A DNA stretch of 64,000 nucleotides from Patescibacteria group bacterium (GTDB lineage Bacteria; Patescibacteriota; Minisyncoccia; Minisyncoccales; UBA5738), in NCBI GenBank assembly GCA_022710775.1, contig JAKLGH010000005.1:9260-73259 (forward strand), written 5' to 3'. Positions within the stretch are counted from its first letter, which is position 1. Each line of letters begins with the position of its first letter. This document shows, in pieces, positions 2,575 through 33,176 of this stretch. Position numbers and translations under genes: made by a program. The notes below the pieces were generated by a model that saw only the letters and a list, made by a program, of their open reading frames with translations, had not been told where the DNA came from and made no database searches.

Positions 2575-2648
2575 TGGGCGTATCCCGATTCGAACGGGAG
2601 ACCTTTTCGATGTCAACGAAACGCTCTAACCAACTGAGCTATACGCCC
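2575..2648 (-). tRNA. tRNA-Val (anticodon GAC)
   Basis: Acceptor GGGCGTA/TACGCCC, D-arm GCTC-AGTTGGTTA-GAGC, anticodon loop TTGACAT, T-arm TCCCG-TTCGAAT-CGGGA. Confidence 0.9.
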
Positions 2649-2699
2649 ATCGTACATTTTTTGCGCTTTTACGGTCTGTAGAGGCAAGGCTACATTGAG

Positions 2700-2728
2700 A
2701 AAATACCTAATTTTAACTCTTTTGTCAA
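2700..2728 (-). promoter_or_regulatory. candidate sigma70 promoter for tRNA-Val(GAC)/rplS
   Basis: On the minus strand: TTGACA (rc of 2723-2728), 17 nt spacer, TATTTT (rc of 2700-2705), about 45 nt upstream of the tRNA 5' end. Confidence 0.4.
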
Positions 2729-2829
2729 ACTAAATTCGGCTTCAAATGGGCGTGGATGGACTCGAACCATCGACCCCGACTTTATGACCCGAGTACGGGT
2801 CGCGTCATTTTACCAACAACTCTTTTAGG

Positions 2830-3049
2830 TGGGCGTGGATGGACTCGAACCATCGACCCCGACTTTATGATTCGCAGCAACGAATCTCGTCATTTTTTCA
2901 ACAACTCCTTAAGGTGGGCGTGGATGGACTCGAACCATCGACCCCGACTTTATAAGAGTCGTGCTCTGACCGACTGAGCTACACGCCCAGAATATAATAT
3001 TGAAAAAATGACATAAGAGTCGTGCTCTAACCGACTGAGCTACACGCCC
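2830..3049 (-). other. middle interrupted tRNA-Ile(UAU) copy B. 5' half is 3013-3049 and 3' half is 2830-2868; the 144-nt insert contains the intact copy C
   Basis: Same half sequences as copy A. Junction helix pairs 2998-3012 with 2889-2903 (15 bp, one G:U), with a hairpin at 2869-2886. Confidence 0.7.
2915..2988 (-). tRNA. tRNA-Ile (anticodon TAT), intact innermost copy C
   Basis: Canonical 74-nt cloverleaf: acceptor GGGCGTG/CACGCCC, D-arm GCTC-AGTCGGTCA-GAGC, anticodon stem CGACT/AGTCG, loop CTTATAA, variable GGGTC, T-arm GATGG-TTCGAGT-CCATC, discriminator A. Confidence 0.85.
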
Positions 3050-3111
3050 AGAATACACTGTTGGTAAAACGACATAAGAGTCGTGCTCTAACCGACTGAG
3101 CTACACGCCCT

Positions 3112-3146
3112 AAGAAAACCTGGCAGCAAAGCGTCTTGCTGCCAGG
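3112..3146 (-). terminator. rho-independent terminator downstream of ftsH
   Basis: 11-bp stem CCTGGCAGCAA (3119-3129) / TTGCTGCCAGG (3136-3146) with a 6-nt loop, followed on the minus strand by TTTTCTT. It abuts the 5' end of the nested tRNA locus. Confidence 0.65.
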
Positions 3147-3190
3147 GGATCAAATAAAAGCCGTAACGTTTTTACCGCTTCGATTTTAAT

Positions 3191-5053
3191 CTATTTTTCC
3201 TTTTTTTTCAATGATTTTTCGCTTTCCGCTCTTGCGTCTCCGATCAGCGCTTCATACTCTTCTTTTTCAATCGTCTCTTTTTCGATTAACCGCGTTGCTA
3301 CTTTATCCAGCAATTTTCGCCGCTGTTGCAATGATTTTATTGCCATTTCCTGGGCTTCATTGATGAATCTGGCAACTTCGTCGTCGATTTTTGAAGCTAT
3401 TTCTTCGGAATAGTTTCTTTCTTCTCCGAACTCGCGGCCCAGGAATGCCAGTTCCTCCCTTTCTCCGAACGCGATCGATCCAAGTTGCGACATTCCGTAA
3501 ACCTTGACCATTTTTCTAGCCAAAGCGGATGCTTGTTTTAAGTCGTTTGACGCGCCAGTGGTAGTTTCCCCGAATTTGATCTTTTCGGCGACAAAGCCTC
3601 CCAGCAAGGTAGCGATTTCGGCGAGGAATTCCGTTTTAGTCCTGATGCGTTTTTCTTCCATCGGGGTTTTTAGCGTATAGCCGGCAGCCATGCCGCGCGA
3701 AATGATGGAGATTTTCCGGATAGGATCGGTTTTCGGCATGAAAGAAGAAACCAAAGCATGGCCCGATTCATGGTAGGCCGCAATCTCTTTTTCATCCTTG
3801 GTTAAAAGATGGCTTTTCTTTTCCGGCCCAAGCAAGACTTTCTCTATCGATTCCAGGAAGTCTTCCTGGAAGATCTGCTGCTTTTCCCGTCTTGCCGCGA
3901 GAAGCGCCGCTTCGTTGACGACGTTGGCAAGGTCGGCTCCGGAAAATCCGGGCGTTCGTTCCGCCACTTCGCGCATATTAATATCTTTGGCTAAGGGAGT
4001 TTTACGGCAATGGATTTTCAGAATCGCTTCGCGGTCGTTGACATCGGGCAAATCCAGGACAATCCGGCGGTCAAAGCGGCCGGGGCGGAGCAGGGCAGGG
4101 TCGAGATATTCGGGACGGTTGGTGGCGCCTAAGACGATTATGCCTTCCTCGCCTTCAATGCCGTCCATTTCAGCCAAGATTTGATTGAGAGTCTGCTCTC
4201 TTTCCTCGTGTCCGCCGGTTAAGCCAACGCCTCTTACTTTTCCAATACTGTCGATTTCGTCGATAAAGATAATGGCGCGTTTGGCCCGGTGGGCTTGTTC
4301 AAACAAGCTCCTTACGCGGCTGGCTCCAACGCCTACAAACAGTTCAATGAATTCTGACCCGGAGATCGAGAAGAAGGGAACGCCGGATTCGTTGGCAATG
4401 GCTTTGGCCAGCAAGGTTTTTCCGGTGCCGGGCAATCCCATCAAAAGCACGCCGCGGGGGATTTTGGCTCCCATTTTCATGTATTTTTCCGGGTTCTTCA
4501 AAAAATCAATGATTTCGTTCAGCTCTTCCTTGGCTTCTTTTAAACCGGCGACATCATCAAAGGTGATTTTCATTTTTTGGGATCCGCCGGCGCCAAGGAT
4601 CCTCGTTTTTGCTTTTGTGAAATCGAAAGCCTGCATTGCGTTTCCTTTCGCCTGCCTGAAAATCATCATAAAAAGGACGATCAGGATAATAAGGGGAATG
4701 ACCGTTCCAAACAGCAGCGGTCCAAGCCATGACCAGGTGCTGCTTTCCGACGTCGCTTCCAGCTCAACCGAAGACAGCTTTGCCTTGTCCACTCCGAGAT
4801 TATCAAAAGATTGGGATAAGGTTGATTCGACTTCCTTTTCCGAAGTGGCCTTGATTCCTTCCTTGTATGTAACTTCCAAGTTGTTGCCGGCTACTTTTAT
4901 CTTGGCAATCTTTTCTTCGTTGATATCCTTGGCAAGTTGCGTGAGGGAAACCTGTTTTTCCGGTTCGGCCGGCTTGGAAAATAGGGCGAAAACCCCGGAG
5001 ATAACGACAAAAATCACTACTACGATAATTAGGTTTTTTGCAAAATCGTTCAT
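3191..5053 (-). CDS. ftsH: ATP-dependent zinc metalloprotease FtsH
   Basis: Walker [14 protein letters not shown], Walker [10 protein letters not shown], Zn motif HESGHAL. The maximal ORF runs to a TTG at 5125, but the ATG at 5053 gives the canonical MNDFAKN plus TM helix N-terminus. Confidence 0.93.
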
Positions 5054-5174
5054 CTTTTCGCCAAAAATCGCAGTCGGTTGATGAATCTTTAGGCGGCCAA
5101 ACTCCTCCCAAAAGATGGTCCGCAACGCGCTGCGAAATATTTGTGACTTGTTAATAGGCTGCGGCTAAAGAGGG

Positions 5175-6250: not shown

Positions 6251-6904
6251 ATGCAAATAATTTGGCACGGTTTATCCTGTTTCCAGATCATTGCCGCCCG
6301 CGGCAAAGGGGAGCATGTTACGATTTTGATCGATCCGCTCAACGAGGACGAAACCGGTTTAAAAACCCCGAAATCCAATGCCGATATTGTTTTGCTTACC
6401 AACAAGCAATACACGGTTACCAATCTTAAAAAAACCGGCGCGCAGGATTCGGCTTTTTTGATCGACGGGCCCGGCGAGTATGAAATTAAGGGTGTTTACG
6501 TGCAAGGAATGGCATCAACCGACAAAGATGGCAAGAAGACGCAGAATACGATATACGCGATTGAAGCTGAAGACATCCAAATCTGCGTTTTGGGCAATTT
6601 AAAACAGGCCGAACTTACCCAGGATCAGATCGAGAAACTCGGACCGATTGATATTTTGACGTGTCCGGTAGGCGGCAAGGAGGCGGCTGGAGCCAAAGAA
6701 GCGATGAAGATCATGACTCAAATCGAGCCCAGCGTCACCATTCCAACCAATTACCAGGTTCCAAAGCTAAAAATGAAGCTCGATCCTCTGCAGGATTTCT
6801 TGAAAGCGGTAGGGGTAGGACCGGTTGAGCCGCTGCCTAAACTGGTTATTAAGAAAAAAGATATTCAGCAAGATAACGCAAAAATCGTTGTTTTGGCGAT
6901 ATAG
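6251..6904 (+). CDS. metallo-beta-lactamase-fold hydrolase (UPF0173-like)
   Basis: 217 aa. The N-terminus MQIIWHGLSCFQI..ILIDPL and overall length resemble UPF0173/UlaG-like MBL proteins. Assigned from memory of the family, not a search. Confidence 0.55.
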   Translation: MQIIWHGLSCFQIIAARGKGEHVTILIDPLNEDETGLKTPKSNADIVLLTNKQYTVTNLKKTGAQDSAFLIDGPGEYEIKGVYVQGMASTDKDGKKTQNTIYAIEAEDIQICVLGNLKQAELTQDQIEKLGPIDILTCPVGGKEAAGAKEAMKIMTQIEPSVTIPTNYQVPKLKMKLDPLQDFLKAVGVGPVEPLPKLVIKKKDIQQDNAKIVVLAI

Positions 6905-10082: not shown

Positions 10083-10490
10083 ATGCTTAAAAAAACAATT
10101 CTACCGGTTCTTTTGCTGGTTTTGGGATTGGGGTTAGGCCTCGTTCCGGCTATCGGGCGAGACGGTTGCGGCGCGTCATCGGCGGTTTTCGCCGCAACCA
10201 ACGATGAAGATGTGTCGGTTGATGTGGAATTCGTTAATCCCATTACCGACGATACCTTGGATAAAGTGATCAACAATTTGATCGATTTTGTTTTTACGAT
10301 AGCGCTGGTTGTTTGCCCGATTGTAATAATTATCGGCGGTTTTATGTTCGTTACGGCTTCAGGGGATCCTAAAAAGCTTGAAACGGGTAAAAAAATCATC
10401 TTTTGGGCGTTGATCGGTTTGGCCATAGCCATTATGGCGAAAGGGATTGTTATTCTGATAAGGGCGCTTCTCGGCGTGAAGAAAACTTAG
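10083..10490 (+). CDS. TrbC/VirB2-like pilin-type small membrane protein (paralog 1 of 6)
   Basis: Signal peptide, variable acidic region, TM helix, SGDPKKLETGKK turn, second TM helix. All six neighbours share this architecture. Confidence 0.7.
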   Translation: MLKKTILPVLLLVLGLGLGLVPAIGRDGCGASSAVFAATNDEDVSVDVEFVNPITDDTLDKVINNLIDFVFTIALVVCPIVIIIGGFMFVTASGDPKKLETGKKIIFWALIGLAIAIMAKGIVILIRALLGVKKT

Positions 10491-22786: not shown

Positions 22787-23581
22787 TCATATTTCTTTTA
22801 AAAAATCCTGGGCTAGGCGCGCGGTGTCTTCCGTGGCTTGGTAAAAATTTTTCCAGACGACCACGATATCGGCGTCGTTGAAAAACGCGCGCTGGATTTC
22901 ACGGATAGTATCGCCTCCGGCAACGGCAACCAAGATGTCGTAGTTGCCTTTGATCTGTTTGATCTGGTAATAGGGGATCTGTTTTTCGCGCGAAAATTCG
23001 GTTTCATCCACGCCTCGATGGAGGATCACGGCGTCGGGAGGGCAATCCAGCTTTTTAAGGATTGACAGCGGATTTGGAACATTCATCATGTCGACCATTG
23101 AATCGATCCGTCTTTTTTTACATTCTTCAATAAATAAATTTATCGTTTCAACCGGGGCCACGCCTAAAACCGTGGCGGCATTGGCGTCGCTGGCTATTGC
23201 TGGAAAAGATAGATTGGCCTGGTTGGTTTCCTGTATTGCGTTAATCTGGTCAGCGGTCATTTTTATCAGGTCCAGAAAAGTGATTTTTTGCGTAAGCAAA
23301 GGTTTAGGCAAGACTGGTATGGGCGCAGGCTGGATATCGCAAACCAGCCCGATTTCGCGGTCAGCGAGGTCGGCGCATTTTATGTCGGCCACAATATAGG
23401 CATTTGGATCCAGTTGCCGAATGGCAGCGATTGCCTGGATGCCGTATTCTTTTATCAAAGGCGTTCCGGCTTCGAGCAGAATATTTTTGGAGCGCGGCAA
23501 AGAAGCGGCAACCAGGCGCGCATCTTCAATAGTGCCGTTTAGAGCGATTTGCAAATATCTTTTTCCTTTTTCCAGCATCAT
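22787..23581 (-). CDS. OMP-decarboxylase-superfamily TIM barrel, 3-hexulose-6-phosphate synthase (HPS/KGPDC)-like, paralog A
   Basis: YLQIALN.., LLEAGTPLIK, VADIKCAD, ILVAVAGG pattern typical of HPS/KGPDC. It carries a roughly 35-aa insertion relative to paralog B. Confidence 0.6.
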   Translation of the reverse strand: MMLEKGKRYLQIALNGTIEDARLVAASLPRSKNILLEAGTPLIKEYGIQAIAAIRQLDPNAYIVADIKCADLADREIGLVCDIQPAPIPVLPKPLLTQKITFLDLIKMTADQINAIQETNQANLSFPAIASDANAATVLGVAPVETINLFIEECKKRRIDSMVDMMNVPNPLSILKKLDCPPDAVILHRGVDETEFSREKQIPYYQIKQIKGNYDILVAVAGGDTIREIQRAFFNDADIVVVWKNFYQATEDTARLAQDFLKEI

Positions 23582-23620
23582 AAGCCAGCGGATCGCAGAG
23601 ACCGGGTCTCTGCCGTTTGT

Positions 23621-24295
23621 TTACTTTATTAATTTCAAAAAATCCTGGGCCAGGGTTGACGTATCTTTCGGCTTTTCGTAAAAAGACCGCCAGACGACAG
23701 CAATGTCGGCGCCATTGAAAAAATCGCTTACCACTTCCCGGGTTGTTTCCCCGCCCGCGATCGATATTAAAATTTTTCCATAGGCGCCTTTTATCCGCGT
23801 GATCTGGTTGAGGGGGATTTGTTTTTCCCGGTTTAAAATGTGTTCATCCGCGCCCCGGTGGAGGACGACGATATCGGGCAAATTTTTTAATTTTTGCAAT
23901 ACTTCAAAGGGAAAGGGAACATTCATCATATCGACCATCGAATCAATGCCGTGCGTTTCGCAATTCTTGATGAATTCATCGATTGTTTCAACGGGCGCCA
24001 AGCCAAGGCAAGTGGCGGCGGATGCGCCGGCCCGGGCGGCGCTCTTTACTTCAGCCGATCCCCGGTCCATGGTTTTGAGATCCGCGACAATGTATGCGGG
24101 TTGGCCGATCTTTTCAGCCCACCAATAGTTCAAATCGGAGACCGCCTTTTGGCCATAGCGCTTGATCAAAGAAGTTCCCGCCTCGATGATGATCTTTGGC
24201 GTTGGCGGCAGGAGCGAGACCATTTCCTGGACTTCAGCCAGGGAACGGTTGAACGCGATCTGCAGATATTTAGACCGGGTGTTGAGAAGGCTCAT
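23621..24295 (-). CDS. OMP-decarboxylase-superfamily TIM barrel, HPS/KGPDC-like, paralog B
   Basis: YLQIAFN.., IIEAGTSLIK, VADLKTMD, ILISIAGG. The ATG at 24295 is preferred over the GTG at 24313 by alignment with paralog A. Confidence 0.6.
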   Translation of the reverse strand: MSLLNTRSKYLQIAFNRSLAEVQEMVSLLPPTPKIIIEAGTSLIKRYGQKAVSDLNYWWAEKIGQPAYIVADLKTMDRGSAEVKSAARAGASAATCLGLAPVETIDEFIKNCETHGIDSMVDMMNVPFPFEVLQKLKNLPDIVVLHRGADEHILNREKQIPLNQITRIKGAYGKILISIAGGETTREVVSDFFNGADIAVVWRSFYEKPKDTSTLAQDFLKLIK

Positions 24296-24355
24296 ATTCA
24301 GTAATTTTAGCACACGACGGGTTAATGCAAATAAAAACCTCTCAAAAAAGAGGTT

Positions 24356-24793
24356 TCAAATGCTCCAGTCGGTTAAGTTTTCTTGTTTTTCCGGCTTCTC
24401 CGACGAGAGAATGATCTTTACCGATATTCCCGGAAATTCTTCGGCTAAAATCTTTGCCAGGCCTTTCGCGGTTTCGATATTATTTCTTCCGAAAACCGTG
24501 AAGATCCAATGGGTTGAATCGGCTTCTTTCGTATGTGCGTATATTGGCGATTGGCCTAAGCCGATTGGCTCGGTAAAGATCGTCCCGAAGTAATAACGTT
24601 CAGCTTTCTTAAGAGCAGCTCTAAATACCTTTAAGCCCTGGCCCGCTGCGTAAATAATTCCAACGCTATTTGTGCTGTCGCTGGGTATTATCTCAAAGCC
24701 GGCCGTTAAATTTTCTCTTAATATCGTTGCGATTCTTTGCGCCAAAGTTTGGCTTATTTTATCCTCGATTTCTATCATTATCTTGTTCTCCAA
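24356..24793 (-). CDS. hypothetical protein (145 aa)
   Basis: Intact ORF directly downstream of a near-consensus promoter. No family recognised. Confidence 0.5.
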   Translation of the reverse strand: MENKIMIEIEDKISQTLAQRIATILRENLTAGFEIIPSDSTNSVGIIYAAGQGLKVFRAALKKAERYYFGTIFTEPIGLGQSPIYAHTKEADSTHWIFTVFGRNNIETAKGLAKILAEEFPGISVKIILSSEKPEKQENLTDWSI

Positions 24794-24806
24794 GCGAACT
24801 TTAAAT

Positions 24807-24834
24807 ATTATATATCAATTTTACTGATTGTCAA
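24807..24834 (-). promoter_or_regulatory. near-consensus sigma70 promoter
   Basis: Minus strand: TTGACA (rc of 24829-24834), 16 nt spacer, TATAAT (rc of 24807-24812), just upstream of the 24793 start. Confidence 0.6.
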
Positions 24835-24916
24835 CTAAAATAGTGTAAGCATTATAACTGAACCAAATTTCCATAAAGAAAAAACCCTAGAATAGGGTCA
24901 TCGTAGGGTTATCGTA

Positions 24917-25216
24917 TCACATCAAACCTACCGGAAAGTATTTCCAAACCAACTGTTCACAGCCGGAAAGATAAATCCGTAAGGCCAGAAGAAAAAAAAT
25001 GTTCGCTCCCAGGTAAGAGAAGAGCAGGGTGTCTAAAAAACCAAGCGCGGTTAAACCAAACGGAGCCAATATAACAAAACGCATCAGGTATAGCGGGATA
25101 TTAAATATCACGCTGATAAAAACAGTTATTGCCATAACCAGAGCCGTGGTTTTTACGGCCAAAGAGATCGTATCGCCCATTCCATTCACGACGGTTTGCC
25201 GACATGCCGTTTCCAT
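24917..25216 (-). CDS. small membrane protein (99 aa, about 3 TM helices)
   Basis: Hydrophobic ORF, AGGAGG 9 nt upstream, hairpin plus T-run terminator downstream (24887-24905). Confidence 0.55.
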   Translation of the reverse strand: METACRQTVVNGMGDTISLAVKTTALVMAITVFISVIFNIPLYLMRFVILAPFGLTALGFLDTLLFSYLGANIFFLLALRIYLSGCEQLVWKYFPVGLM

Positions 25217-25359
25217 AAAGCCAATCCTCCTTTTTAAAGTTCTGAATTTGTGATTAATTTCTAACGATAGGTTACAAAAACTTCCAAGTCAAGAATGCCC
25301 GGTTTACAGACAAAGAAATTAATAAAAGCCCTGCGGAGAGCGCAGGACATGCTTATTTC

Positions 25360-26130
25360 TTAAGAATGATGCATTGCGGCCATCAATTTGGCCCATTGCT
25401 CTGTTCGTTTCGGTTTCCACATGATCTTTCCGGCGGCGATCAGGCCGGCGACCTTAAGATCGTCCTGGCGGAATTCCTCAATCTTTTTTCTTACCAGAGA
25501 AATGACTTGCAATTCGCGTTGGCCGTTGTCGAAAACATACAGGCTGTCAACCGTTGGCGAGCGGTTCAGGAAGCAGGCGATGGCAATCACATCGGCGCCG
25601 TAACTTTCGATCAGCTCGATCAGTTGCTGCGTCGTGCTGAAATTATTACAGACGTCTTCGATAATGATTACCAAATCTCCTTGGTGCACTTCGTGCCGGT
25701 CCAAGATTAACTGGGTTTCATCCCGGCCGCCTTTGGTGCCTACGGCCAGAACTTTCTTTTCGGCTTTGATCGTCCGGCAGCCTAGTTTTTGGCCAAGCAT
25801 GGTTGACAGGCAAAAGCCTCCGACCGGTGCTCCGCAAAGTACGACATTCGAAGGGAGCTTTTTTAAAGGCAGGAAAACTTTTTTTATTTTTCTGGCCAGT
25901 TTCCCGGCGATAAAGCCAAGGTCGTCGGACGGCCATTCCTCCAAAATCGCGAAGTTCAGGTAAACTTGTCCGACATATTGGAGGTGTTTTCCTTCTTTAT
26001 CTTTGTACTTTCCGGCGTATCCAACCAGCCATCCGTCTTCCGATGTTTGTTCGTAAAAAGCCTGTCTGGCCCGCGCGATATCTAAGAAATCGCGGCGGCG
26101 CGAATATATTTCTTTCGCCGTTATTCTCAC
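25360..26130 (-). CDS. type I phosphoribosyltransferase (orotate PRTase-like by context)
   Basis: PRPP-binding loop DLVIIIEDVCNNFSTT. The start overlaps the pyrF stop by 4 nt. Confidence 0.6.
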   Translation of the reverse strand: MRITAKEIYSRRRDFLDIARARQAFYEQTSEDGWLVGYAGKYKDKEGKHLQYVGQVYLNFAILEEWPSDDLGFIAGKLARKIKKVFLPLKKLPSNVVLCGAPVGGFCLSTMLGQKLGCRTIKAEKKVLAVGTKGGRDETQLILDRHEVHQGDLVIIIEDVCNNFSTTQQLIELIESYGADVIAIACFLNRSPTVDSLYVFDNGQRELQVISLVRKKIEEFRQDDLKVAGLIAAGKIMWKPKRTEQWAKLMAAMHHS

Positions 26131-26891
26131 AATATCCGCTCCCGCGATTTATCGCACGCTTCCAGCGCTCCGGTAATTTCTTCCAAGATCAGTTTTACCG
26201 CGTCGACCGGCGTTCCGATGTCTATAGGCGGTTTGGATATTGGCCGTCCGATTACCAGTTTAACTTCTGGTCCGCCGGCTTTAATGGCTTCGGTCGGCGT
26301 CATGAAACGGCTTTGGTCGTCGGGGGGAGCCCATTTTGGCCTGATGCCCGGAACTATTCTTCGCAGGCGGATCAACTCTTTGTGCTTGGCCAGCATTGGC
26401 AGTTCTTCGGCTGAGCAGATGATTCCGTCCATTCCGGCCAAAACGGCATTGCGGGCGAACTGCAAAACCTTGGCTTTTACCGGCATGCCGTATGCCAGAT
26501 ATGCTTCTTCTTCGTCCATAGAGGTGAGGACGGTAACAGCGTATGCCAGGGTTGAGCCTTTATTTTCCGCGACCGCCATCATTCCGTCTATTTCCGCCGA
26601 AGCGTGCACGTTTAACATTGCCACACCCAGATCCGCCAATCCTTTTGTTGCATCGGCCAGGGTGTTGGGGATGTCTTTAATCTTTTGATCGACAAACGCT
26701 TTGCCGCCGAACCTATGAACCATATCGACCGCTTGCGGAACGCCCATTTTCGAATTGAGCCCCAAGCCGATTTTAAAATAACCGACATAGTTTTTTAGCA
26801 TTTCAATATGGCGCGTGGCGTTAAATGCGTCCATTCCGTCCAACGGAAAGATCAAGTTCTCCCGTGCGTCAACTTTTCTTCCTTTATACAC
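26127..26891 (-). CDS. pyrF: orotidine 5'-phosphate decarboxylase
   Basis: FVDQKIKDIPNT (DxKxxDIPNT signature), IFPLD near the N-terminus. GTG start preceded by GGAGG. Confidence 0.85.
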   Translation of the reverse strand: MYKGRKVDARENLIFPLDGMDAFNATRHIEMLKNYVGYFKIGLGLNSKMGVPQAVDMVHRFGGKAFVDQKIKDIPNTLADATKGLADLGVAMLNVHASAEIDGMMAVAENKGSTLAYAVTVLTSMDEEEAYLAYGMPVKAKVLQFARNAVLAGMDGIICSAEELPMLAKHKELIRLRRIVPGIRPKWAPPDDQSRFMTPTEAIKAGGPEVKLVIGRPISKPPIDIGTPVDAVKLILEEITGALEACDKSRERIL

Positions 26892-32998: not shown

Positions 32999-33074
32999 GC
33001 CCTCGTAGTTTAATGGATAAAATGCGAGGTTGCGGACCTTGCGACTACAGGTTCGATTCCTGTCGAGGGCACCA
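32999..33074 (+). tRNA. tRNA-Arg (anticodon GCG), CCA encoded
   Basis: Acceptor GCCCTCG/CGAGGGC, anticodon stem CGAGG/CCTTG, loop TTGCGGA, T-arm ACAGG-TTCGATT-CCTGT, then ACCA. Confidence 0.85.
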
Positions 33075-33138: not shown

Positions 33139-33176
33139 GTCAGGGAACCATTCGATTCCTGTTGAGGGCATTCATT
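33139..33176 (+). pseudogene. degenerate duplicate of the tRNA-Arg 3' end (T-arm plus acceptor)
   Basis: TTCGATTCCTGTTGAGGGCA (33151-33170) matches the tRNA at 33052-33071 in 19 of 20 positions. Flanking similarity extends to about 35 nt. Confidence 0.5.

Follow-up and report, generated by a model that had tools for sequence, protein, structure and literature searches.

The tRNA-Ile(UAU) locus on the minus strand of DNA from an uncultured CPR bacterium (Patescibacteria), a 64-kb stretch that we call the window, probably records two successive insertions of a small, gene-less mobile DNA unit that carries a spare copy of its own essential target. On the same reading, which rests on sequence comparison, the unit is probably a recurrently invading, non-autonomous element defined by its structure. 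The comparison covers about ten diverged lineages, represented mostly by short MAG or metagenome contigs, among which the L021 and L014 loci came from an FtsH scan of a genome collection that yielded no other informative loci and did not return the genome of the window. Comparatively, it documents the architecture, the fixed insertion point, presence and absence, covariation, the decay of outer halves and one replacement by a foreign tRNA; the mobility of the unit we infer from these lineages and not from observed movement.

Along the minus strand, on which all features below lie, the locus is built concentrically: an intact tRNA-Ile(UAU) lies in the middle, preceded by a pair of 5' halves and followed by a pair of 3' halves, and both nest levels are bracketed by complementary 15-nt arms and a hairpin. 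A terminator-like hairpin after ftsH (3119..3146) lies 8 nt ahead of the first 5' half. It shows where the tRNA-Ile gene was originally bordered on its upstream side, and the same hairpin is also found ahead of tRNA-Ile in L008, L010 and L021. The outermost 5' half (half A, 3074..3110) is a relic of nucleotides 1-36 of the original resident tRNA-Ile(UAU), ends in CTTAT, and is 37/37 identical to half B and to the tRNA of L008 and L021. Unit E1, the older insertion, follows (2786..3073; 288 nt including E2, 144 nt of its own), with a left arm, a 9-nt leader, a tRNA split by E2, a trailer, a right arm, a GC linker and a hairpin. Its left arm L1, GTCGTTTTACCAACA (3059..3073), is complementary to its right arm R1, TGTTGGTAAAATGAC (2804..2818), and its hairpin, GACCCG-TACT-CGGGTC (2786..2801), directly adjoins the AT of 3' half A; an identical 16-nt hairpin is present in L008, but with different arms. 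The 3' part of the original resident, the relic 3' half A (2747..2785), completes the nest.

The tRNA borne by E1 is itself divided into two relics, 5' half B (3013..3049) and 3' half B (2830..2868; ATAAAG...CCCA, then CC), by the younger insertion, unit E2 (2869..3012, 144 nt), which comprises a left arm, a leader, the intact tRNA, a trailer, a right arm, a GA linker and a hairpin. The left arm L2, GTCATTTTTTCAATA (2998..3012), pairs with the complementary right arm R2, TGTTGAAAAAATGAC (2889..2903), and the hairpin, GATTCG-TTGCTG-CGAATC (2869..2886), directly adjoins the AT of 3' half B. The intact tRNA-Ile(UAU), copy C (2913..2988), is the sole copy recognised by ARAGORN and by Rfam (tRNA, 74 bits), the inner gene alone being reported by ARAGORN in intron mode as well, and is presumably the only functional copy of the nest. 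The 5' halves differ from it at one position (36/37 identical, T versus C in the D loop) and both 3' halves at none (39/39, E-values 1e-14 to 1e-20; 41/41 for half B including its CC), and 3' half A continues with TTT, not CC. Both 5' halves end in CTTAT and both 3' halves start with ATAAAG, leaving AT on both sides of each insertion. All coordinates and sequences of halves, arms and hairpins agree with a preliminary description of this DNA, as do the 144-nt unit at each level and the single split point with a 2-nt AT on both sides.

Across lineages, the units measure 138-151 nt, have no ORF and contain a whole tRNA-Ile(UAU) gene. The split point is invariant in every case (…TTAT / unit / ATAA…, with A35-T36 on both sides), though the tRNA sequences differ, and the unit ends are conserved as RTC…GAY-G(C/A)-hairpin-AT. 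The right inverted repeat stops 18-21 nt short of the unit end; there is one local hairpin only, at the right end, and the left end pairs with the right arm. When the right end is joined to the left end, the two form a single uninterrupted hairpin of 23-30 bp, as observed in 5/5 units tested (DNA z -5.1 to -8.3), and the unit can therefore be described as a tRNA plus a hairpin, opened at a fixed point. In this hairpin, the duplicated AT is a conserved mismatch on the 3' strand, 6-7 bp below the apical loop and opposite the conserved G-C/A linker.

The paired arms show covariation. Within each level of the window, 14 Watson-Crick pairs and one G-T pair are formed over 15 positions, compared to 12/15 across levels, and the two fully compensatory changes noted in the preliminary description are indeed found, at positions 9 and 10. 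Arm and hairpin sequences are wholly different between lineages, with complementarity kept: 13.3/15 Watson-Crick within units versus 6-7/15 between unrelated units, only the terminal RTC/GAY being conserved. In the permuted hairpin alignment, 91.8% of the cells pair, versus 68.6 ± 2.5% after shuffling and 30-46% in slid registers; both partners have changed in 16/21 pairs, and not one of 500 shuffles matched the observed data on any measure. The covariation first described for the window alone is thus much stronger with relatives (92% paired, 16/21 double-changed), with the refinement that arms and hairpin are parts of a single long hairpin. The G-T and A-C mismatches show no strand bias (3 versus 3), so they do not tell which strand folds.

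Related genomes contain empty, filled and partly deleted sites. A plain ftsH–intact tRNA-Ile–tRNA-Val order with no halves is found in L014, L027, L030-L032 and L033-L035 (FtsH 55-75% identical), which represent four lineages outside a narrow Patescibacteria clade; units or their remains are present in 7/7 sampled lineages of the clade (FtsH at least 81% identical). L021 and L022 have a single complete unit, the window has a double nest, and L029 has a young unit within the right end of an older one, with a right end only in L010 and left ends only in L001 and L009. Homologous integration would be expected to leave a tRNA–hairpin–tRNA tandem, and none of the sampled lineages has one. These states are the ones expected of a unit that would insert and then be subject to deletion.

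The innermost unit of L029 has 23/23 perfect arms, unrelated in sequence to the outer unit and adjoining the tRNA with spacers of 0-2 nt. Older units have an arm pairing of 11/15 (L022, L023) or a decayed hairpin (L021), and arm integrity thus follows unit age. The 5' relic of L009 matches the L022-type tRNA at 31/35 positions and its own inner tRNA at 24/35, the resident having been replaced by a foreign, different tRNA-Ile sequence. Between species, two hairpins (16/16 and 17/18) and one right arm (15/16) are closer than the genome DNA (~85%), and the conserved parts of the unit occur in different combinations. No copies of the unit were found in the window or the 35 loci except at tRNA-Ile(UAU), one locus per genome. 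One reading offered in the preliminary description, a 144-nt tRNA-carrying inverted-repeat element inserted twice into its own target, is supported by the empty outgroup sites, by the single, double and partly deleted states, and by the unrelated arms within the same architecture together with the foreign inner tRNA of one lineage.

We propose that a closed unit would be opened at the AT of its hairpin and joined into A35-T36 of the tRNA-Ile(UAU) anticodon loop, a point in the middle of the palindromic TTATAA. In the inserted state, the left arm would derive from the basal 3' strand of the hairpin, and the right arm plus hairpin from its basal 5' strand together with the apical hairpin. The insertion would destroy the resident gene, which is essential and single-copy, yet it would do no harm, since the copy that comes with the unit would be functional, in the same orientation and under the same upstream promoter. 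As the carried copy restores the target site, a later unit could insert into it in turn, giving concentric nests, and the displaced outer halves would be dead and would decay or be removed by recombination between the repeated halves. The catalyst would probably be supplied in trans: a recombinase or transposase that recognises structure and works on folded single strands, like IS200/IS605 TnpA or the integron integrase, or alternatively a serine recombinase with a 2-bp stagger; DNA uptake may carry variants of the unit from genome to genome. The AT at the centre of TTATAA, the position at which resolvase cuts this motif, fits the 2-nt stagger of a serine recombinase; the donor site has no dyad symmetry, and no such enzyme was found in the window.

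Pfam searches of the ~60 ORFs of the window, which amounts to <10% of a genome, gave no recombinase, transposase, HUH nuclease, homing endonuclease, RtcB or EndA, and no integrase family was found in these 64 kb. The right junction and the circle (attP-like) junction had 0 matches in viral contigs, BLAST of the nest against phages and plasmids returned generic tRNA similarity only, and no circular or free form of the unit was found in phage, plasmid or viral collections. A metagenome scan with the 3'-half start and the hairpin skeleton gave 3 matches, all due to chance and inside protein-coding genes without a tRNA. The literature yielded no description of a tRNA gene within a tRNA gene, nor of a mobile element that kills the resident copy and supplies its replacement; the preliminary description likewise knew of no concentric tRNA genes in bacteria. 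To our knowledge, no family fits the tRNA plus hairpin unit.

Separately, the ORF after ftsH in L025, which contains an HTH and ends in '…GLGLYWGEG' at the contig end, was weighed as a possible homing endonuclease and matches HTH families only. Several other candidates were rejected: a small ORF that follows the tRNA and has a Shine-Dalgarno-like AAGGAG, because neither its frame nor its start is conserved between units; a retro-copy of a terminated tRNA transcript, with which the boundaries of the unit disagree; an origin of the hairpin from P-nucleotides or hairpin opening, since its sequence does not mirror the flank as a palindrome; and a large element integrated and later deleted, because the arms of L029 abut the tRNA with hardly any spacer (0-2 nt).

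It is possible, though unlikely, that a single ancient founder event produced the 5' half–unit–3' half order, which then spread and nested by RecA-type double crossover of imported DNA with the 37- and 39-nt halves as homology arms, arms and hairpin being kept by a function in cis, e.g. ensuring that the inner tRNA is correctly folded locally or correctly processed in a transcript with competing relic halves. Recombination confined to the halves would give exactly the nested order, and between species the tRNA halves alone are identical, with flanks ~85% identical. Deletions between repeated halves clearly occur (L001, L010, L029), an invariant junction is expected if it was inherited from a single founder, and the 64-kb window contains no candidate enzyme. 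However, crossovers on two arms of <40 nt should be far rarer than deletions collapsing the nest, yet units are found in every lineage of the clade, often at several levels. A function in cis also leaves unexplained the presumably working tRNA of L010, which has no left arm, and the lost pairing of older units compared to the perfect arms of the youngest. Finally, this reading does not do away with a recombination of the anticodon AT with the hairpin AT, which is still required for the founder event.

The RNA encoded by the nest (2745-3112, minus strand) folds at minimum free energy into three cloverleaves nested concentrically (-147.9 kcal/mol; z = -6.8; equalled by 0/100 shuffles). Their junction is a tight three-way junction where three helices meet, namely that of the exon (…UUAU/AUAA…), that of the 15-bp arms and the hairpin; 0, 2 and 0 unpaired nucleotides separate them. 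A hammerhead-like three-way junction was considered and rejected, as its core motifs are absent. This perfect three-level fold, the covarying helices and the undamaged halves of the window, which when joined would give a perfect tRNA, are what would be expected of a functional RNA device, in which one precursor yields copy C through RNase P/Z and the tethered outer halves are trimmed and ligated into extra tRNA-Ile, a bacterial analogue of archaeal split and intron-containing tRNAs. We consider this reading, also put forward in the preliminary description, to be very improbable. The three-way junction is not the bulge-helix-bulge required (two 3-nt bulges with a 4-bp helix between them), a motif which is not present at the nest junctions of the RNA fold, no ribozyme or intron family (including RF00028) matches the nest in Rfam at E <=10, neither RtcB nor EndA families occur in the 64-kb window, and the product would be redundant with copy C.

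The state of the outer halves in relatives also argues against ligation. In L008, the outer 5' half is truncated, the outer 3' half is mutated in the acceptor stem, and the outer left arm is unpaired with its outer right arm, indicating that outer arms need not match. The 5' half of L022 has lost 2 nt of the anticodon stem, the halves of L023 are interrupted by 100-nt and 32-nt insertions, the outer 3' half of L029 is truncated, and some relatives have kept outer halves on one side only. Purifying selection on the halves as sole functional tRNA is not seen, an intact copy being present and outer halves being damaged in L008, L022, L023 and L029. The outer halves, decayed, truncated, interrupted or deleted as they are in relatives, are therefore relics and not split genes awaiting ligation, as the preliminary description had allowed in a third reading; decaying halves without maintained outer pairing were the very outcome it had named as speaking against ligation. 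The halves of the window are themselves relics in pristine condition: constraint could be the cause, and a recent insertion or gene conversion explains this equally well.

A third alternative, hardly credible and largely refuted, is that there is no mobile unit: one tRNA gene would have been duplicated locally in tandem, together with its flanks, and rearranged by unequal crossing-over, or the nest would be an assembly artefact. In its favor, tandem arrays are formed by the 5' halves (61 nt) and by the 3' halves (83/85 nt), unequal crossing-over does act here (L010, and L001, whose assembly lacks precisely the 168 nt that separate the first 3' half from the last), and several short-read contigs end at the nest repeats (L005-L007, L028). 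However, duplication would give identical arms at each level and cannot give unrelated, perfectly paired arms nested in another type (L029), it leaves the matched compensatory changes on both arms unexplained, the same architecture recurs with different sequences in seven lineages, and the nest is no assembly artefact because it is 100% identical in four independent assemblies (JGI, ENA and two NCBI MAGs).

The insertion of a mobile unit, which we favor, has partial parallels in several known systems. IS200/IS605 elements (such as IS608 and ISDra2) and their gene-less derivatives, the palindrome-associated transposable elements, have no classical terminal inverted repeats, make no true target duplication, and depend on hairpins. 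They insert 3' of a fixed tetranucleotide in a fixed orientation, have their right end in a related tetranucleotide, and pass through a single-stranded circle with joined ends. By analogy, the would-be tetranucleotides here are TTAT on the left and (T/A)CAT on the right; the observed junctions, after TTAT on the left and after TCAT or ACAT on the right, fit this mode and fit equally a 2-bp AT duplication or a crossover. However, in IS200/IS605 elements each end has a subterminal hairpin of its own, the left and right ends do not pair with each other, and copies and sites are numerous, whereas the unit has one local hairpin, paired ends and a single locus, and no TnpA is found in the window.

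Integron cassettes, which consist of a cargo and an attC hairpin, resemble the unit in their single imperfect hairpin, with conserved structure and variable sequence as found here, in a closed form opened at a fixed point of one strand, with a short hairpin piece at one end and the bulk at the other, and in unpaired bases marking the site. They differ in that the crossover here lacks the R/L box consensus (GTTRRRY; R''/R' core RYYYAAC / GTTRRRY), there is no attI platform, and the window holds no IntI; moreover, the unit enters a tRNA anticodon loop and has as its cargo the very gene that it targets, and the crossover lies mid-stem, not at the base.

Prophages, ICEs and genomic islands that use a tyrosine integrase likewise take a tRNA gene, often its anticodon loop region, as a conserved safe site, avoid harm through a tRNA sequence that restores function, leave the displaced tRNA fragment as a direct repeat, and are known to accrete in tandem at one tRNA. 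Nevertheless, they are kilobases long and encode their integrase, whereas the unit is ~140 nt with no ORF, and the window has no integrase family. The tRNA portion that they carry is limited to the 3' (rarely the 5') part, so that fragments accumulate on one side, and their overlap is at least 7 nt; the unit carries the whole tRNA gene, leaves both a 5' and a 3' half around an insert of 138-151 nt, nests concentrically, and has an overlap of 2 nt. MITEs and small palindromic repeats (Correia, RPE, REP, mitochondrial GC clusters) are similar in size (~100-150 nt), in having inverted repeats, a 2-bp duplication and no ORF, and in their presumed mobilisation in trans, but the unit has one target per genome, a right repeat that is subterminal by 18-21 nt, and a functional gene identical to its target.

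In the split and intron-containing tRNAs of archaea (Nanoarchaeum equitans, Caldivirga, Caldiarchaeum), half genes are flanked by mutually complementary sequences, and mobile-element integration has been proposed as the source of the disruption in or next to the anticodon loop (PMC3293823, PMC3218864). The archaeal halves are functional and joined by EndA and RtcB at a bulge-helix-bulge, whereas the halves described here decay, lack this motif, enclose an intact copy and belong to a bacterium. Group I introns in the tRNA anticodon loops of Patescibacteria are mobile and inserted at or next to position 35/36 (PMC13011429), and thus share with the unit the phylum, the insertion in the anticodon loop and toleration through restored function (PMC13011429). 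In contrast, they are self-splicing, at least 200 nt long and restore function at the RNA level, whereas the unit would do so via a second gene; with 144 nt, 76 of which are tRNA, it has neither a group I core (P3-P8) nor a terminal G, ending instead in C (or CAT).

It is quite possible, if somewhat short of probable, that the unit represents a new class of mobile element, a ~140-nt 'self-replacing cassette' whose folded hairpin is recombined with the anticodon loop of an essential tRNA by a structure-specific enzyme acting in trans. The cargo tRNA would be the antidote and possibly also the guide, via its self-complementary UUAUAA loop, and the concentric relics would be both a record of invasions and a DNA-level route to tRNA half-genes with complementary helices.

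Known ways to inhabit an essential gene are self-splicing, as in introns and inteins, and restoration by a partial copy, as in integrase elements; the unit would represent a third way, a complete spare gene. As the spare restores the target, nesting follows automatically. The locus may provide a bacterial example of the DNA-level origin of tRNA half-genes bracketed by complementary helices, which bears on the long debate on whether archaeal split and intron-bearing tRNAs are ancestral or derived from mobile-element insertion. There are also practical consequences, as annotation tools detect the inner gene only and the repeats may yield collapsed contigs seemingly without a functional tRNA-Ile (L024). 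AUA decoding in these CPR genomes depends on tRNA-Ile(UAU), and the nests suggest that, in such reduced genomes, this tRNA gene may be replaced by horizontally moving copies.

Reading of the minus strand over 2600-3300 of the window bore out every element and coordinate of the preliminary description. A single tRNA-Ile(UAU) is called at 2913/2915-2988 (ARAGORN, Rfam), and BLAST of this intact gene (copy C) against the window gives two extra copies of its first 37 nt (5' half A, 3110-3074, and 5' half B, 3049-3013, minus strand, 36/37 identical) and two of its last 39-41 nt (3' half B, 2868-2828, and 3' half A, 2785-2747, minus strand, 100% identical). The 5' halves recur with a period of 61 nt and the 3' halves with one of 83/85 nt, and the repeat finder that gave these periods also detects nested inverted repeats at 3073-3059/2818-2804 and 3012-3000/2901-2889 (minus strand). 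At each level the 5' half ends in CTTAT and the 3' half starts with ATAAAG, so that A35-T36 stands on both sides of the insert, which is 144 nt long at both levels. The predicted RNA fold of the whole region consists of three concentric cloverleaves (-147.9 kcal/mol, z -6.8). The nest is identical across the JGI, ENA and two NCBI MAG assemblies, and the sequence is therefore real. Copies B and C are preceded by TATTCT and followed by CC; copy A, the outermost, has the ftsH terminator hairpin before it and TTT after it. These flanks point to a unit that was inserted together with a tRNA of its own.

On one side the nest is bordered by ftsH (3191-5125, minus strand), on the other by tRNA-Val(GAC)–rplS–tRNA-Leu–tRNA-Val. 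Given that the nearest named FtsH relatives belong to Candidatus Nealsonbacteria, Minisyncoccales, Paceibacterota, the host is a CPR/Patescibacteria bacterium, and the remainder of the window holds ordinary CPR housekeeping genes; no recombinase, transposase, HUH nuclease, homing endonuclease, RtcB or EndA family was detected in the 64-kb window. Elsewhere in the window, a 21-nt stretch lying 77 nt downstream of tRNA-Arg(GCG) (32999-33074) repeats the 3' end of that gene from T loop to acceptor (33150-33170, 19/20 identical), and looks like an att-type scar of a different kind of integrative element. Two tandem T4SS-pilin-like genes (PF18895, 11847-12620) are identical over 366/366 nt, an identity that comes either from very recent duplication or from the assembly, with a third, diverged paralogue upstream (10083-10490). 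Three paralogous OMP decarboxylase/HUMPS ORFs (PF00215) cluster at 22787-26891, and an ORF at 60080-60640 matches the CarS-like CDP-archaeol synthase family (PF01864, E 5e-27), lipid enzymes of archaeal type, here in a bacterial genome.

Each unit comprises a left arm, the tRNA, a right arm, a linker and a hairpin. When its right end is joined to its left end (right arm–linker–hairpin–AT–left arm), one nearly continuous hairpin of 22-30 bp results, with DNA folding z of -5.1 to -8.3 (n=5 units). The AT present on both sides sits at an internal mismatch of this joined hairpin, 6-7 bp below the apical loop, and the conserved G(C/A/T) linker lies opposite. Since the joined ends pair and the AT occupies a fixed mismatch, the unit is best described as a tRNA gene plus a single long hairpin whose 3' strand is opened at a constant position; the ends are joined into the anticodon loop at A35-T36, midway in the palindrome TTATAA. 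The tandem tRNA–hairpin–tRNA expected from homologous integration of such a unit was never seen among the compared loci. On the plus strand, in antisense, each hairpin with the T-rich right-arm complement after it (window 2786-2818 and 2869-2903) scores as intrinsic-terminator-like, and in some units, though not all, the A-tract, stem-loop and T-tract of the joined ends recall a bidirectional terminator.

Within units, the arms form a mean of 13.3 Watson-Crick pairs, against 6-7 across units of unrelated arm type (both ungapped, first 15 arm positions); there are at least four unrelated arm types, and only the terminal RTC/GAY is conserved in sequence. An alignment of seven permuted hairpins over a 21-pair structure had 91.8% of cells paired, compared with 68.6 ± 2.5% for column shuffles and 30-46% for slid registers. 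Both sides had changed in 16 of these pairs, the covariation score was 0.678 against 0.221, and 0/500 shuffles reached any observed measure. G-T and A-C mismatches are equally frequent, and hence tell neither the folded strand from its complement nor folded DNA from folded RNA.

We compared the ftsH-downstream intervals of relatives and other assemblies (loci L001-L035) along a divergence gradient, percentages being FtsH identity to the window; the base is about ten lineages, mostly on short contigs, and all evidence is comparative. Empty sites, in which ftsH is followed by an intact tRNA-Ile(UAU) and then tRNA-Val, with no halves, occur in L014 (55%), L027 (Ca. Nealsonbacteria DGGOD1a, 74%), L033-L035 (74%) and L030-L032 (75%). 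At 81% and above, every sampled lineage has a filled site. The simplest state is that of L021 (86%), with a 5' half, left arm, tRNA, right arm, partly decayed hairpin and 3' half (unit of 140 nt), while L010 (86%) has only the tRNA, right arm, hairpin and 3' half. In L008 (91%), the outermost 5' half is both mutated and truncated and is accompanied by a second 5' half, the tRNA and two right ends; three insertions at the least, together with deletions, are needed to account for this arrangement. The tRNA-Ile sequence differs in L022 (84%) and L023 (81%), where the arms are 21-23 nt long and the hairpin is of another type (TCC[C/G]GC…), with the same architecture and split point as the other units. 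The arms in L029 (82%) are of a further sequence type and pair perfectly (23/23); their unit sits within what is left of an L023-type unit, namely its right end and a truncated 3' half. In L009 (85%), decayed 5' halves are all that remains, and the tRNA-Ile downstream of them has a quite different sequence. Among all tRNAs of the compared loci, orphan halves split at the anticodon belong to tRNA-Ile(UAU) only.

Several of these loci show further peculiarities. L001, from the same strain as the window but another assembly, is short of exactly the 168 nt that separate the first 3' half from the last, leaving three 5' halves and one 3' half at about 3574-3770 (window 2785-2953), due either to recombinational deletion in the population or to repeat collapse by the assembler. 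The short-read contigs L005-L007 (ending at window 2776) and L028 (at its contig end) stop within the nest; assemblies of the tRNA-Ile locus are fragmented by the repeated halves in these genomes. L024 (3840-4160), with the same FtsH protein as L023 in another sample, is 61 nt shorter, and its sole tRNA-Ile copy is interrupted by the 100-nt D-loop insertion; ARAGORN found no tRNA-Ile in this contig, which either was collapsed by the assembler or represents a real variant without an intact tRNA-Ile gene. In L025 (79%), an ORF cut by the contig end (3692-4006) directly follows ftsH at the usual tRNA-Ile position; its N terminus matches an HTH (Pfam HTH_3, E 3e-5), a '…GLGLYWGEG' motif stands where the contig ends, and the product may be a free-standing homing endonuclease. 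The T-loop GGTCCGAC, with C in place of the near-universal T55, occurs in both a unit-borne (L022, 4474-4546) and an empty-site (L033, 4413-4486) tRNA-Ile(UAU). L009 also repeats nt 1-25 of tRNA-Val(GAC) at 6503-6527, the intact gene lying about 110 nt further downstream; because the breakpoint follows the D arm and is not in the anticodon loop, this was another kind of event.

The relatives support the earlier proposal of an element that carries tRNA-Ile and inserts into its own target. They show a fixed target (TTATAA of tRNA-Ile(UAU), split after TTAT), a fixed opening point in a structurally conserved hairpin, an orientation always the same as that of the target, recurrent insertion into the unit's own tRNA, and loss via recombination between repeated halves. 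Relics and inner tRNA are alike within most lineages. The L009 5' relic, however, matches the L022-type tRNA at 31/35 positions vs 24/35 for its inner tRNA, indicating that the resident gene was replaced by a foreign one. The young L029 unit is no local duplicate, as its arm sequence is unrelated to that of the enclosing older unit. The window and L008 share an identical 16-nt hairpin with linker, another hairpin at 17/18 and a right arm at 15/16, despite a genome-wide DNA identity of about 83-86%, and these parts occur in different arm/hairpin combinations, which suggests exchange or conversion among unit variants. The state of the arms follows the order of nesting: they are perfect in the innermost L029 unit and 14/15 in the window, and older single units have 11/15 arms or a decayed hairpin; this is the pattern of ends needed at insertion, not afterwards. 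No free hairpin copy was found in the window or the compared loci, large pattern scans gave no further unit copies, and neither a free form of the unit nor an enzyme for it was seen.

A trans-acting enzyme would recognise the folded hairpins. By analogy with known systems there are three putative candidates: a Y1 HUH transposase of the IS200/IS605 kind, which would cleave after TTAT (left) and after (T/A)CAT (right), in which case there would be no true duplication; a tyrosine recombinase that, like those of integrons, would act on a folded strand; and a serine recombinase that would make a 2-nt stagger at AT. Co-orientation may be mechanistic or selected, selection being possible because no convincing promoter is shown inside the unit, with transcription coming from upstream.

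The main rival, which we rate lower, invokes one founder event and no enzyme thereafter: the two tRNA halves, which alone are identical between species, would serve as the sites at which imported DNA recombines. Two homology arms of less than 40 nt should nevertheless be much less efficient than deletions erasing the nest, the maintained hairpin structure is left unexplained, and the founder event still needs recombination of the anticodon AT with the hairpin AT.

The preliminary description had also considered that halves A and B are ligated into tRNAs or are dead relics, and had named decay in relatives as telling against function. Such decay is found: the relatives' outer halves are decayed, truncated, hit by insertions or present on one side only. 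In L008 the outermost 3' half has an acceptor-stem mutation and the outer left arm does not match the outer right arm, so that outer complementarity is not kept; the L022 5' relic has lost 2 nt of the anticodon stem; and in the L023 relics the D loop is interrupted by a 100-nt inverted-repeat insertion and the T loop by a 32-nt hairpin insertion. The former (4465-4564) has 14-nt terminal inverted repeats, CCCCGTTAGAAATT / AATTTCTAACGGGG, and the latter (about 4753-4784) is GC-rich; small palindromic insertions seem common in this lineage. The junction in the predicted RNA fold is a tight three-way junction with no bulge-helix-bulge, and ribozyme or intron models gave no match on the nest even at E <=10. 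Judged from sequence, these results leave ligation unsupported and favour A and B as relics; that both are still pristine is accounted for by insertion in recent times, or by gene conversion between repeats spaced 61-85 nt. An archaeal-type intron or split tRNA (PMC3218864, PMC3293823) is ruled out by the same missing motif and decaying halves, and a group I intron, of the kind recently surveyed in Patescibacteria tRNA genes (PMC13011429), by the lack of an intron-model match.

Among known systems, tRNA-targeting integrative elements are closest in working, as both use a safe site, restore its function and leave a displaced fragment, but the unit has no integrase or other ORF and carries the whole tRNA, not only its 3' part. 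Its dependence on a hairpin resembles that of integron cassettes or IS200/IS605; unlike these, the unit has no attC core sites and no paired end-hairpins, respectively, and it occupies one site per genome. Conservatively, the finding is a site-specific, non-autonomous insertion into a tRNA gene. We found no description in the literature of a tRNA gene nested within a tRNA gene, and carrying a complete spare copy of an essential target, with nesting built in, appears to be an undescribed strategy. It is quite possible, if somewhat short of probable, that the unit will represent a new class once its enzyme is found. The unit bears directly on how split tRNA genes can originate.
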